NCBI GenBank assembly: GCA_005879315.1
Contig: VBLC01000046.1
Coordinates: 65,424 to 129,423, forward strand
Direction of reading: 5' to 3'
Length of the DNA stretch: 64,000 nt
From: Deltaproteobacteria bacterium
GTDB lineage: Bacteria; Myxococcota; Myxococcia; Myxococcales; 40CM-4-68-19
Below the pieces are notes generated by a model. The model saw only the letters and a list, made by a program, of their open reading frames with translations. It had not been told where the DNA came from and ran no database searches. The translations under genes and the position numbers were made by a program. Below are positions 12,709 through 18,591 of this stretch, piece by piece (position 1 is the stretch's first letter; each line of letters starts with the position of its first letter).

Positions 12709-14475
12709 GTGATTGCCGGTATTGTTGAACGAGCGATGTCCCTTCCGCTTCCGATCGAGGCCGAGCGGCTGCGCGCCGAATCGCAACGGCAGCTCGGCGA
12801 GCTCCTCGAAGTGATGCAGTTCCTCGCCGTCCTGCAGGACGTGCAGGGCCGCGTCAGCTATTGCAACGACGCGCTCCTGCGGCTGACCGGTTATGGCCGC
12901 GAGGACGTCGTCGGGAAGAACTGGTTCGACCTCTTCGTGCCGGCCGAGGAACGCGAGTCGCGCCGGGGCGCCTATCTCGCCGAGCTGCCGCGGGGCGACT
13001 TCCAACCAAACATCGAGCGCGAGCTGCAGACCGCGAACGGCGAGCAGCGCCTCATCCAGTGGAATCAGCTCCCGCTGCGCGAGGGCGCCCGCGTGATCGG
13101 CTGTGCCCGCATCGGAACCGACGTCACCGAAATCCGCCGCGCCTCGCAGAAGCTGCTCCACGACGCCTTCCACGATGCGCTCACGGGGCTGCCCAACCGC
13201 GCGCTGTTCATGGACCGCCTCTCCCACCGCCTGGCGCTGGAGAAGCGCCGGCAGGGGAGCAGCTTCTCGGTGCTCTTCCTCGACGTCGATCGCTTCAAGG
13301 TCATCAACGACAGCCTCGGCCACGTCCGCGGCGACGAGCTGTTGGCCGAGGTCGGGCGGCGGCTGCAGGCTTGCCTGCGGGCGGGCGACACCGTCGCGCG
13401 GCTGGGCGGCGACGAGTTCACCATCCTCATCGAGGACGTGAAGAACAAGGCCGAGGCGCTCAAGGTCGCCGAGCGCGTCCAGCAGGATCTGCGCGCGCCG
13501 TTCTCCATCGGCGGGCAGGAGATCTTCAGCGGCGCGAGCATCGGCATCGCCCACGGAAGCAGCGGCTACGCCCGGCCCGAAGACATCCTCCGCGACGCCG
13601 ACACCGCGCTCTACCGGGCCAAGGCGCAGGGGCGGGGCCGCTTCGTCGAGTTCGACCCGAGCATGCACGACCGCGCGATGGCGCTCTTGCGGCTCGAGAC
13701 CGATCTGCGCCGCGCCCTCGACCGGAACGAGCTGCGCATCCATTACCAGCCCGTCGTTTCCCTCGCGACGGGCCGCATCGTCGGAGCGGAGGCGCTGGTC
13801 CGCTGGCTCCATCCCGAGCGCGGGCTGGTCTCTCCGATCGAGTTCATTCCGCTCGCCGAGGAGACCGGCCTGATCATCGCCATCGGCGGCTGGGTGCTCA
13901 CCGAGGCCTGCCGGCAGATGAAGGAGTGGCAGGACAAGGTCGGCCAGGCCGAGCTGGAGCTGAGCGTGAACCTCAGCTCGCAGCAGTTCGCGCAGCCGGG
14001 CCTGGTGGCGCAGGTGGCGGACGTTCTGCGCGAGACGGGTCTGTCGCCGCGCTGCCTGCGGCTGGAAGTGACCGAGAGCCTGCTGATGGAGAGGCATCCG
14101 CACATCGCCGACACGCTCACCGAGCTGCGCGCCATGGGCGTGCGCCTCGACCTCGACGACTTCGGCACCGGCTACTCGTCGCTCAGCTACCTGCACCAGT
14201 TCCCCATCGACACGCTCAAGATCGACAAGAGCTTCATCGCCCGCATCGGCGAGAGCGAGGAAGGGCTGGAGATCGTCCACACCATCATGTCGTTGGCGCG
14301 GAGCCTGGACATGGAAGTGGTGGCGGAGGGCGTGGAGAACGCCAAGCAGCTCGATGCGCTGCGGCAGCTCGGCTGCGCGCACGCGCAGGGGTATCATTTG
14401 AGCAGGCCGGTCGACAGCGGGAAGTTCGGAGTGCTGCTCGGCGAAGGGAAGAGCCTGACCGTCGTCAACGGCTGA
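12709..14475 (+). CDS. PAS-GGDEF-EAL c-di-GMP turnover protein (paralogue 2)
   Basis: Same architecture as paralogue 1: RAGD followed by [20 protein letters not shown] and [16 protein letters not shown] 12709 or ATG 12736 start. Confidence 0.9.
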
Positions 14476-14518
14476 GCCTTGCGCAAGCGCCTTGCGTCGT
14501 GTACGCAAAGCGCCGCGC

Positions 14519-15687
<1,169 letters not shown>

Positions 15688-15691
<4 letters not shown>

Positions 15692-16128
15692 GCTTCGTCT
15701 CCTCGCTGGTGCGAAACCTCCTCGGCAAGCCCGTGGCCGCCGATTTCCGCGACTCGGCCGAGCACTTCGTCTCGGTCCTGCGCGAGCACGGCATCCAGCT
15801 GACGTTTGCAAGAGAGGATCTGCAGCTCGTCGACGACCTCGCCGAGCGATTGGCGAAACACAGCGAATACCGCGACGCGCTCGGTTGCTGGCTCGGCGAA
15901 GTCCTGGTGCGCAACTTCGCCGGCGAGTGGGTTCCCGGCCACGCCCTCGGTCCGGCGGTGCGGGTCGTGACTACGACGGGCGTCAAGCACCTCTTCCCGC
16001 TCGGCTGGATCTACCGCCGCGCCGACGGTGGCGAGAGCGAATCGATCGCCGCCAAGCTGCACCGCGAGCTGGGTTATCCCGACCCGGCGCACCTGCGGAA
16101 ATTTGCCGATTCGGGGGAGCGCGCATGA
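15688..16128 (+). CDS. uncharacterised 146-aa protein inserted between sucC and sucD
   Basis: It is the C-terminal part of six-frame ORF 14479..16128. TTG 15688 overlaps the sucC TGA (TTGA) with GGGAG 7 nt upstream, and its TGA overlaps the sucD ATG (ATGA 16125-16128). The composition is balanced (W, Y, F, H, K, D/E), unlike shadow frames. No family recognised. Confidence 0.6.
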
Positions 16129-17000
16129 GCGTCCTCGTCGACAAGGAAACCCGCGTAGTCTGCCAGGGCATCACCGGCAGCGCCGGCTCCTTCCACTCCA
16201 GGCAGATGCTCGCCTACGGCACACAGCTGGTCGCCGGCGTCACGCCCGGCAAGGGGGGCAGCAAGTTCGAAGGAAAGGTGCCGGTCTTCGACACCGTCCG
16301 CGGCGCGGTGAAAGAGACGCGCGCCAACGCCAGCGTCATCTTCGTCCCGCCAGCCTTCGCTGCAGACGCCATTCTCGAAGCCGTCGCCGCCGGGATTCCC
16401 CTCGTCGTCTGCATCACCGAGGGCATTCCCATCGACGACATGGTCAAGGTCAAGCGCGCCATGCAGGGATCGCAAACGCGCCTGATCGGCCCCAACTGCC
16501 CGGGCATCATCACGCCGGGCGAGTGCAAGATCGGCATCATGCCCGGCCACATCCACAAGAAGGGCCGCATCGGCATCGTCTCCCGCTCGGGCACCCTCAC
16601 CTACGAGGCGGTGCACCAGGTGACGCAGCTGGGGATGGGGCAGAGCACCGCCATCGGCATCGGCGGCGACCCGGTGCACGGCATGGATTTCGTCGACTGC
16701 ATGAAGCTCTTCGCCGGCGATCCGGACACCGACGCCGTCATCCTCATCGGCGAGATCGGCGGCAGCGAGGAAGAGGACGCCGCCGCCTGGATCAAGGGGA
16801 ACTACCGGAAGCCGGTGGTCGGATTCATCGCCGGCGCCACCGCTCCTCCCGGCAAGCGGATGGGCCACGCCGGAGCCATCATCTCCGGCGGCAAGGGCAC
16901 CGCGCAGGACAAGTTCCGCGCTCTCGGCGAGGCCGGCGTGCACATCGCCAAGGGCCCGCACGAGCTCGGCTCGACGCTCAAGTCGGTGCTGAGGGCGTGA
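16125..17000 (+). CDS. sucD: succinyl-CoA synthetase alpha subunit
   Basis: [20 protein letters not shown] and GHAGAII (phospho-His loop). GGGGAG Shine-Dalgarno upstream. Confidence 0.95.
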
Positions 17001-17896
17001 CCGCCGCGCTGGCGGCGCAGGCGCTGAGCAAGTCCTACCGCACTCCGGGGGGCGGCCAGCTGGTGGCGGTCGATGCCCTCTCGTTCGAAGTCCAGCCCGG
17101 GGAGATCGTCGGCGTTCTCGGACCCAACGGCGCGGGGAAGACGACCGCCCTGCAGCTGGCGTTGAAGCTCTTGCATCCCGACTCCGGCGAGTCGCGGCTC
17201 TTCGGGCTAGACCCGGAAGACCTCGCCGCGCGCCGCCGGGTCGGATACGCGCCCGACGCGCCGATCTTTCCCAAGGCGTTCACCGGCCGCCGCGTGCTCG
17301 AGCTGCACGCCGATCTGCTCGGAGTTCCGCGGCAGCGGATCATCTCTCTGATCGAGCAGACCAACCTGGCCGAGGCGGCGCAGCGGCAGGTCGCGACGTA
17401 TTCGCGCGGGCAGCTGCAGCGGCTCGGTCTTTCCCAGGCGTTGCTCAACGAGCCCGACCTGCTGCTGCTCGACGAGCCCACCGCCGGCCTCGACCCAGCC
17501 GGCGTGGCGAGCATCCGGGCGATCCTCTTGTCGGTGCGGACACGCGGCGGGGCGGTGCTGCTCAATTCGCACCTGCTCTCGGAAGTGGAGCGCATCTGCG
17601 ACCGGGTTCTCTTCATCAAGAACGGCCGGCTTCTGCGGGCTCATGACGTGCACGCCGGCGGTCGGCGCGCCGAAGTGCGGCTCCGCAACGCGCCTCAGCT
17701 GGCGGCGAGGCTCGGGGAAAGACTTCCCGGGGGTGCGCTGGAGGGCGATCGCTTTCGCATTCCAGTCGCCGGGGAAGAGGCGGTGCCCGGCCTGGTCCGA
17801 TCGCTCGTCGAGATGGGCGGCGAGATCCTCGAAGTGAAGCTCGGCGGAGCGGAGCTGGAAGAGCTCTATCTCCAGCTCGTCGAGGGCCGCGCGTGA
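16997..17896 (+). CDS. ABC transporter ATP-binding protein (ABC-2 type)
   Basis: Walker [10 protein letters not shown], signature variant [11 protein letters not shown], Walker [13 protein letters not shown] and H-loop NSHLL. GTG overlaps the sucD stop (GTGA). Confidence 0.85.
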
Positions 17897-18591
17897 TCTC
17901 CTGGGTCATCGCTCGCGCCACGGCTCGCGAGAGGGGGCTTTCCCCGCTGACCATCGCCATCGCCGTCGTCCTGGCGCTGGTCGCTTGCTTCTCCTCTTCC
18001 GCCGACGCCTGGGCTGGTCTCACCTTCGAGGTGCTCACGCTCCTCGTCGGCGCGGGCCTGCTCGCCGACGAGCTCGAGTCAGGCCATGCCCAGCTGGTCC
18101 TGCTCCGTCCGCTGACTCGCGCGCAGTGGCTGGGCGGCCGGCTCGCCGGCGCCGCGCTGGTGCTCGCCTCGGCGGCTCTTCTCGCCACGCTGGCCGGCGC
18201 GCAGGCGGCGATCTTCCGCGGCCTCGGGTCGGAAACGCTCCCGCGGCTGGCCGTCTTGCCGCTGACGCTGCTGCCCGCTTTCGCCTGGCTCGCCACGCTC
18301 GTCGCGCTCTCCGCCGTCGCGCGGGGCTGGACGAACGCCGGCATCGTCATCGCCGTCTACTTCGGCTGGAAGATCGCGAAATTCTCCCTGCCGCTGGCCC
18401 TCCACCGGCTCGATCTCCAGCCGCTGTTCGAGGGCCTCGACCGCTACTTCGGCCCGCAGGAGCTGATCTCGCTGCCGGCGGGCACTTCGCTGATCGAGCG
18501 CGCAGCGTGGGACGTCCTCTGGGTCTTCGCCTCCTGGACCTCCGCGGTTCGCCTCTTCAACCTGCGCGAGCTGGCCCGGCGGCGCCCATGA
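17893..18591 (+). CDS. ABC-2-type transporter permease-like membrane protein
   Basis: 232 aa with about 6 hydrophobic helices. GTG overlaps the ATPase stop (GTGA). Confidence 0.65.
   Translation: MISWVIARATARERGLSPLTIAIAVVLALVACFSSSADAWAGLTFEVLTLLVGAGLLADELESGHAQLVLLRPLTRAQWLGGRLAGAALVLASAALLATLAGAQAAIFRGLGSETLPRLAVLPLTLLPAFAWLATLVALSAVARGWTNAGIVIAVYFGWKIAKFSLPLALHRLDLQPLFEGLDRYFGPQELISLPAGTSLIERAAWDVLWVFASWTSAVRLFNLRELARRRP

Follow-up and report, generated by a model that had tools for sequence, protein, structure and literature searches.

In bacteria, succinyl-CoA synthetase is regarded as a simple alpha-beta enzyme, the subunits of which are encoded by two adjacent and coupled genes, sucC and sucD. 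The locus described here raises the question of why a third gene should lie between them. In a stretch of 64,000 nucleotides from a genome recorded as Deltaproteobacteria bacterium (GenBank assembly GCA_005879315.1, contig VBLC01000046.1, positions 65,424 to 129,423; the whole stretch is referred to as "the window"), the sucC stop codon and the sucD start codon are 433 nt apart, and the interval is filled by an open reading frame (ORF) for a protein of 146 amino acids, here named X, which overlaps sucC at its start and sucD at its stop. Both flanking genes pass the equivalog thresholds of their families. The sucC gene reaches 571.7 bits with NCBIfam PRK00696 (E 7e-172, cut-off 370), the malate--CoA ligase beta model staying under its cut-off on the same gene (542.5 bits, cut-off 604), and sucD reaches 471.6 bits with PRK05678 (E 8e-142, cut-off 336).

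A preliminary description of this DNA had proposed that X encodes a protein of its own, as yet uncharacterised, with its gene inserted between sucC and sucD and translationally coupled at both ends. Its reading of the junctions, comprising the TTGA and ATGA overlaps, the GGGAG motif 7 nt upstream of X and the 433-nt gap, matches the window sequence (Table 1), and the proposal itself is borne out by homologues, by the ratio of nonsynonymous to synonymous substitution rates (dN/dS) and by the conservation of the junctions. Neither a gene separating sucC from sucD nor a third component of the bacterial enzyme was found described in the searchable literature; X is already listed by gene callers as a hypothetical protein. 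A whole lineage has long retained a third, well-conserved protein, predicted to be folded, between the two subunit genes.

A protein gene inserted between sucC and sucD

Long shadow ORFs are common in G+C-rich DNA, and the X frame is open from position 14479 through all of sucC, so that independent proof of coding was needed. The G+C content per codon position of X is 0.73/0.45/0.85 (85% at third positions), and sucC and sucD show a like pattern. A search of 5.8 billion proteins yielded 237 clusters of X homologues, all of which are labelled "hypothetical protein" and come from records named Myxococcales or Deltaproteobacteria bacterium; gene callers arrived at X independently in JGI, ENA and NCBI records. 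A hidden Markov model (HMM) derived exclusively from distant relatives that belong to other taxa matches the X frame with an E-value of 9.5e-30 and has no second match in the window. Neither a promoter-like site nor a terminator-like site on the + strand was detected in the sucC-sucD interval, nor was any Rfam family of note.

Within the X family, identity between members goes down to about 59%, and length variation is confined to one loop and the C-terminus, with indels that preserve the frame. Conservation reaches at least 97% at 55 of the 146 positions when 65 unique full-length sequences are compared. The median pairwise dN/dS of X is 0.27 (325 pairs), compared with 0.16 for sucD, and the highest value among the 293 pairs with dS below 1 is 0.585. 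The median is, thus, well under the value near 1 that the preliminary description had held to be incompatible with its claim, and the alternative it had allowed for, a neutral insertion that preserved coupling, is contradicted by this purifying selection. The mean distance of X (0.286) exceeds those of SucC (0.164) and SucD (0.137) and is smaller than that of the adjacent ATP-binding cassette (ABC) transporter ATPase (0.349); X diverges at about twice the rate of SucC and SucD, yet more slowly than the ABC ATPase. At the aligned first position of X, a start codon is present in all 50 distinct junctions (ATG in 25, GTG in 19 and TTG in 6), which favours 15688 as the start over the in-frame GTG at 15709. 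X is a genuine, selectively maintained protein gene.

The distribution of X was established from both genomes and metagenomes. X occurs in 28 genomes of a scan of GTDB species representatives, in the order sucC-X-sucD wherever the contig extends far enough, and a 366-kb metagenome contig (L001) has this order together with the same wider neighbourhood as the window. Relatives without X were sought by scanning metagenome contigs with SucD, and the best 80 loci form two groups, 65 with a SucD that is 84–90% identical to that of the window and 15 with 68–74% identity. With in-clade loci defined by a SucD identity of at least 84%, 90 loci have at least 100 nt of upstream DNA, including the 28 GTDB species genomes and about 60 metagenome loci. 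X lies directly 5' of sucD in 88 of these, and a further locus (L087) was added by eye on account of its X C-terminus. The conserved homologue at the same position in relatives, on which the preliminary description had made its claim depend, is consequently present at 89 of 90 loci.

The sole in-clade exception is L059, a contig of 1163 nt. At its positions 1-213, no X is found 5' of sucD (87% identical); its place is taken by a 15-bp inverted repeat without mismatches (GGTCGAAGGCCGAGC...GCTCGGCCTTCGACT), after which come AAGGAG and an ATG. This could be a second, stand-alone copy of sucD, a rearrangement or a chimeric contig.

A survey of sucC-sucD spacing and synteny, of the kind that the preliminary description had proposed, also covered these outgroup loci. 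X is absent from all 14 outgroup loci whose upstream DNA is long enough (SucD identity 68–74%). Twelve of them include the 3' end of sucC; 11 of these have a sucC-sucD gap of -1 to 63 nt, and the remaining one (L106) has a gap of 156 nt. A further outgroup locus (L108) has no sucC upstream of sucD. In Escherichia coli, the sucC stop and the sucD start share 1 nt. Since X is present in 89 of 90 in-clade loci and in none of the 14 outgroup loci, it is a lineage-specific insertion into an otherwise canonical sucC-sucD junction, and this insertion probably took place once, in the ancestor of an uncultured soil lineage recorded as Myxococcales or Deltaproteobacteria bacterium. The position of X is kept more strictly than that of the ABC transporter downstream, which is lost or moved in a third of the loci; its ATPase gene adjoins sucD in 53 of 81 in-clade loci and in none of 12 outgroup loci.

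A few records depart from the regular form of the gene. In L090 (positions 381-743 onward), a frameshift after about residue 121 turns X into a shadow-frame read-through of 734 codons, which is probably an assembly indel and possibly a pseudogene. Two proteins (P0127, P0123) join part of X to unrelated sequence, one carrying N-terminal 168 residues that resemble an SIS sugar-isomerase domain and the other a C-terminal stretch that resembles glycerol kinase; these are most likely chimeric metagenome contigs and not real fusions.

Family and fold of protein X

X is a soluble protein of 16.2 kDa with a pI of 6.4 and without a hydrophobic segment. It scores above no curated cut-off in scans against Pfam, NCBIfam, PADLOC and PHROGs. 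With Pfam DUF3806 (PF12713), X itself reaches 12.8 bits (E 0.1), short of the cut-off of 21 bits, and with DUF6278 (PF19794; cut-off 26.4 bits) it has no match at E-values up to 1. Weak matches appear when further members of the X family are considered, to DUF3806 in 6 of 17 (best E 0.0023) and to DUF6278 in 3 of 17 (best E 1.6e-4).

When 1.84 billion representatives were searched exhaustively with phmmer, X proved to have distant relatives at about 30–35% identity, with E-values between 1e-9 and 1e-3. Some of these are small proteins, and others are large, with two to five copies of the domain and sometimes additional TPR repeats. Several distant relatives reach the Pfam cut-offs for DUF3806 or DUF6278; among 14 of them, 6 match DUF6278 and 3 match DUF3806 (up to E 2e-24). 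When the X family was aligned with the distant relatives in hhalign, a probability of 99.7% and an E-value of 2.7e-25 were obtained over X residues 15-132. A second large protein search with a further X alignment returned only in-clade sequences and added little.

The AlphaFold2 model calculated with the distant relatives in the alignment is confident, with a predicted local distance difference test (pLDDT) score of 86.7 and a predicted template modelling (pTM) score of 0.83, and comprises three helices, a three-stranded sheet and two helices, the first 10 residues being disordered. In a Foldseek search of the Protein Data Bank (PDB) with this model, entry 3HLZ ranked top, with a probability of 1.00, a TM score of 0.51–0.53 and a root-mean-square deviation of 3.7 Å; the other matches were noise. 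A profile of X together with its distant relatives matches residues 158-266 of 3HLZ (E 8e-7), while the X-family profile alone has no match to the 3HLZ sequence. An earlier model, based on 17 in-clade sequences (pLDDT 65.7), gave Foldseek matches mainly to Hsp70 ATPase domains; these are noise and the model was discarded.

On the basis of these profile and structure searches, both of which the preliminary description had recommended, X is best described as a divergent, distinct branch of the DUF3806/DUF6278 superfamily as judged from sequence profiles and the predicted fold, lying below the thresholds of both Pfam families; the statement that no family could be recognised is, hence, superseded. 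Additions specific to X, and absent from the wider superfamily, are a nearly invariant N-terminal stretch (R9-H26), a GHALGPA loop and a C-terminal FxDxGxR motif; invariant residues occur in all three as well as in a YRRADGG motif. The invariant charged residues include R9, K14, D19, R21, D22, R32, D49, R54, E60 and R62, as well as D63, E71, R75, R110, R111, D113, E118, D141 and R145, and their number may be read as pointing to a conserved partner. An N-terminal amphipathic helix was considered as a membrane anchor; as its hydrophobic moment does not exceed a moderate value (0.49, with p 0.06 on shuffling), it is not relied on.

The only characterised function found in the DUF3806/DUF6278 superfamily is a reported link to SitI2 of Myxococcus xanthus. 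SitI2 is reported to match both PF19794 and PF12713 (PMC12390754), and experiments have shown that it confers immunity to SitA2, an outer-membrane-exchange toxin (PMC5562445). By analogy, this case suggests that the fold is capable of tight protein binding. The structure 3HLZ, from Bacteroides thetaiotaomicron, was determined by the Joint Center for Structural Genomics (JCSG); it is an uncharacterised protein and provides the only solved DUF3806 structure. Its PDB title names the 269-residue chain "BT_1490 (NP_810393.1)". In a study of vitamin B12 uptake, BT_1490 is BtuG1, which consists of an N-terminal beta-propeller and a C-terminal region of about 270 residues (PMC8941943). A protein with this domain make-up is longer than 269 residues, so that the BT_1490 tag may be off in one of the two sources.

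Large proteins of 430-979 amino acids contain the X-like domain two to five times (P0137, P0143, P0141, P0142, P0167), some of them with many TPR repeats. In the long distant homologues, the only fused domains found were TPR repeats and extra DUF3806 or DUF6278 copies, with no enzyme or toxin domain. The genomic contexts of distant homologues, comprising a Phycisphaerae metagenome-assembled genome (MAG), a Myxococcota MAG, Leifsonia, and plasmids of Mycolicibacterium and Streptomyces, have no recurring theme and no toxins. In one of them, plasmid pTY66_01 of Mycolicibacterium sp. TY66 (L112, 4333-5405), a 146-aa X-like gene (30% identical, with a weak DUF6278 match) overlaps by 4 nt an upstream gene for a hypothetical protein of 211 aa without a recognisable toxin domain, and the pair may be a two-gene cassette. 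At 2-5 kb upstream of the pair are genes annotated as "type VII secretion target", as "Abi family protein" and as "nucleotidyltransferase domain-containing protein".

Translational coupling and the possible link to succinyl-CoA synthetase

The two junctions of X differ in how strictly they are conserved. The stop codon of X and the start codon of sucD overlap by 4 nt in 73 of 77 loci, corresponding to 47 of 50 distinct junctions, regardless of the length of the X C-terminus, and a Shine-Dalgarno-like GGAG or GAGG is located 4-16 nt 5' of sucD, likewise in 47 of the 50. Both features persist in a subclade in which X is 8-20 residues longer and in which the Shine-Dalgarno motif is provided by other codons (P-E-V). 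The FxDxGxR motif of X is retained there although the motif for sucD has shifted, which argues that FxDxGxR is constrained at the protein level. The sucC-X junction is looser: in 37 of 50 distinct junctions, sucC stop and X start are -4 to +6 nt apart, while most others have a distance of 13-63 nt. In 25 of 50, the start codon of X is GTG or TTG, and a Shine-Dalgarno-like motif 5' of X is seen in only 13 of 50 and is, thus, not a conserved feature. In one locus (L031, 869-1137), sucC stop and X start are separated by three tandem copies of a unit of about 66 nt, giving a gap of 259 nt. Copies with 90-94% identity are present at L053 5007-5143 and L021 5531-5602, and the unit looks like a dispersed intergenic repeat. 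Its presence indicates that the sucC-X junction tolerates insertions, while the X-sucD junction does not.

The conserved order sucC-X-sucD, the 4-nt overlap and the lack of an internal promoter or terminator form the sequence pattern expected of genes that are transcribed and translated together. From the anatomy of the junctions and from established knowledge of translational coupling, sucC, X and sucD are probably coupled by reinitiation. Ribosomes ending sucC would reinitiate on X, which would be translated mainly by these ribosomes, and those ending X would in turn reinitiate on sucD, the initiation of which would be tied to X termination and reinforced by its own Shine-Dalgarno motif. X would then be produced only when, and roughly in proportion as, SucC and SucD are produced.

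As the best reading, we consider that X may be a protein-binding partner, regulator or assembly factor of succinyl-CoA synthetase, a reading suggested by sequence and model to which we give a probability just short of even. X would regulate, stabilise or help to assemble the alpha-beta enzyme, binding via its superfamily fold and its family-only N- and C-terminal extensions, the latter with the FxDxGxR motif. For a link to the enzyme speak the site of X between the genes of an obligate heteromer, its stricter retention compared with the ABC transporter, the many invariant charged residues, and the binding-module ancestry of the fold. A more specific form of this reading, in which a single myxobacterial lineage co-opted the superfamily domain as a third component of succinyl-CoA synthetase in stoichiometric amount (for example an inhibitor, stabiliser or tether) via a translational relay, is put forward tentatively, with the balance of probability clearly against it.

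Several findings weigh against the enzyme link or are neutral towards it. In X-bearing genomes, lineage-specific fixed substitutions number only four in SucC and two in SucD, and neither subunit has lineage-specific insertions or new tails. The distance matrices of X and SucC/SucD correlate with r 0.82-0.83, which is barely above the r of 0.81 for X and the ABC ATPase; the partial r of X with SucC/SucD given the ABC ATPase is 0.47, that of X with the ABC ATPase is 0.32-0.38, and the SucC-SucD control gives 0.62. Distant superfamily members occur in heterogeneous contexts and, in those examined, never beside sucCD. Moreover, sucD is also overlap-coupled to the gene for the ABC ATPase, presumably one without any relation to the enzyme, so that overlap alone is no proof of partnership, and a gene between two co-selected genes could hold its position by entrapment alone. 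The succinyl-CoA synthetase of other bacteria works without X.

These points lead over to the main alternative, namely that X is usefully functional but unrelated to succinyl-CoA synthetase, having been trapped in a strongly and constitutively expressed operon; it might be a domesticated orphan immunity-type protein against a toxin of the soil community, or a binder of another target, and would be retained because breaking sucC-X-sucD would harm the expression of an important enzyme. We regard this as a serious possibility, albeit one that falls well below an even chance. Polymorphic toxin systems are known to include fusions of immunity domains, and X-like domain repeats within single large proteins, with three to five matched stretches in P0141, P0142 and P0167, are in keeping with this alternative, as are the lack of a clear co-adaptation signal in SucC and SucD, an ABC transporter that is overlap-coupled to sucD without an obvious link to the enzyme, and the role of the superfamily member SitI2 as an immunity protein (PMC5562445, PMC12390754). 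The ABC transporter, however, is lost or moved in a third of the loci and X essentially never. Further points concern the immunity variant: X has no flanking toxin gene, mobile element or island feature, and the examined contexts of its distant relatives are toxin-free as well, so that immunity is not a role shared throughout the superfamily. Orphan immunity genes tend to be patchy in distribution, to reside in islands and to turn over rapidly, whereas X is retained in 89 of 90 loci and has 55 nearly invariant residues out of 146.

Two further explanations would deny the peptide any function of its own. X could be only a translated spacer, the translation of which feeds ribosomes to sucD and sets the SucC:SucD ratio. 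The X-stop/sucD-start overlap is, indeed, the most conserved feature of the locus, and the starts of X are weak; but a functionless peptide would drift, which is at odds with the low dN/dS and the 55 positions conserved to at least 97%, and neither a confidently predicted fold nor homology to a widespread domain would be expected of it. The outgroup and E. coli, moreover, couple sucC and sucD directly, without a spacer. We consider this explanation very improbable. That the 433-nt interval is non-coding (a spacer, a regulatory RNA or an internal promoter) and the ORF a chance frame in G+C-rich DNA has a negligible probability. The frequent long shadow ORFs and the open frame across sucC would allow for it, yet the coding-type codon-position G+C, the frame-keeping indels, the match of an HMM from unrelated taxa and the independent gene calls all contradict it, as does the lack of promoter-like, terminator-like and Rfam signals in the interval. 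A neutral or non-coding spacer is, thus, rejected in view of purifying selection together with the coding evidence.

Either of the two functional readings would be of consequence. If X binds the enzyme, it would represent a control point of a new type at a central step in the TCA cycle and in substrate-level phosphorylation, would provide the first functional handle on the DUF3806/DUF6278 superfamily, and would be a case of an immunity-related binding fold reused for housekeeping regulation. If it does not, the locus would be a clean natural case of a gene held inside the operon of an obligate heteromer, and would help in assessing to what extent interaction can be predicted from gene order. 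Although the organisms are uncultured, the question is cheaply testable by heterologous co-expression.

Locus layout and comparison with known systems

The features of the locus are compiled in Table 1. In the window, the overlaps form a coupled chain sucC-X-sucD-ABC-ABC. A PAS-GGDEF-EAL gene (cyclic-di-GMP turnover) lies 43 nt 5' of sucC on the same strand (window 12709-14475) and is likewise present in the 366-kb relative (L001 2030-3790); it may be a conserved operon neighbour.

Table 1. Coordinates of genes and junction features around X (positions in the window).
Feature	Position	Strand	Remarks
sucC, ADP-forming succinate--CoA ligase beta subunit, 390 aa	14519..15691 (ATG 14519, TGA 15689-15691)	+	NCBIfam PRK00696; Pfam ATP-grasp_2 and Ligase_CoA
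GGGAG, Shine-Dalgarno-like	15676..15680	+	7 nt 5' of the X TTG, within the final sucC codons; read from sequence
TTGA, overlap of X start codon and sucC stop	15688..15691	+	Read from sequence
ORF X, 146 aa	15688..16128 (TTG 15688-15690, TGA 16126-16128)	+	Between sucC and sucD
GGGGGAG, Shine-Dalgarno motif of sucD	16113..16119	+	5 nt 5' of the sucD ATG, within the final X codons (S-G-E)
ATGA, overlap of sucD start and X stop	16125..16128	+	Read from sequence
sucD, succinate--CoA ligase alpha subunit, 291 aa	16125..17000 (ATG 16125-16127, TGA 16998-17000)	+	NCBIfam PRK05678; Pfam CoA_binding and Ligase_CoA
ABC-transporter ATPase gene	16997-17896	+	GTG 16997 overlaps the sucD TGA 16998-17000 (GTGA)
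Gene after the ABC ATPase	17893-18591	+	4-nt overlap with the ABC ATPase gene; ABC-2 type permease in L001

Compared with DUF3806 and the C-terminal domain of 3HLZ, X has the alpha/beta core in common (three helices, three-stranded sheet, two helices), as well as two motifs, GxxxGE...R...W ahead of the sheet and P...(K/R)R...G behind it. The predicted fold of X matches the C-terminal domain of 3HLZ only; unlike X, this protein has an additional N-terminal beta-sandwich domain (PMC3792639).

SitI2 and DUF6278 proteins belong to the same superfamily as X, SitI2 being likened to X via its reported Pfam matches, and the likely common property is the tight binding of another protein. An immunity gene of the SitI2 type adjoins that of its cognate toxin, usually downstream in the same operon, whereas the neighbours of X are sucC and sucD in 89 of 90 loci; neither in the window nor in the 366-kb relative is X flanked by a toxin domain, a mobile element or an island feature. 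While immunity proteins are usually patchy, strain-variable and located in islands or on mobile elements, X is fixed at one site in a housekeeping operon, outside any prophage-like or variable island.

With regard to small accessory subunits encoded in the operons of multi-subunit enzymes, CydX of cytochrome bd and KdpF of the Kdp system are short membrane peptides with demonstrated association. X resembles them in being a small, initially unannotated ORF that is conserved in such an operon and translationally linked to it; it differs in being a soluble, folded domain of 146 residues, restricted to one lineage, the association of which with the enzyme is putative.

A further comparison is that with the canonical sucCD operon, as represented by E. 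coli. Here as there, SucC and SucD are orthodox, and the start of the alpha-subunit gene is overlap-coupled to the gene directly upstream. In the canonical operon, this upstream gene is sucC itself; in the lineage described here, X directly precedes sucD, and coupling would run from sucC to X and from X to sucD.

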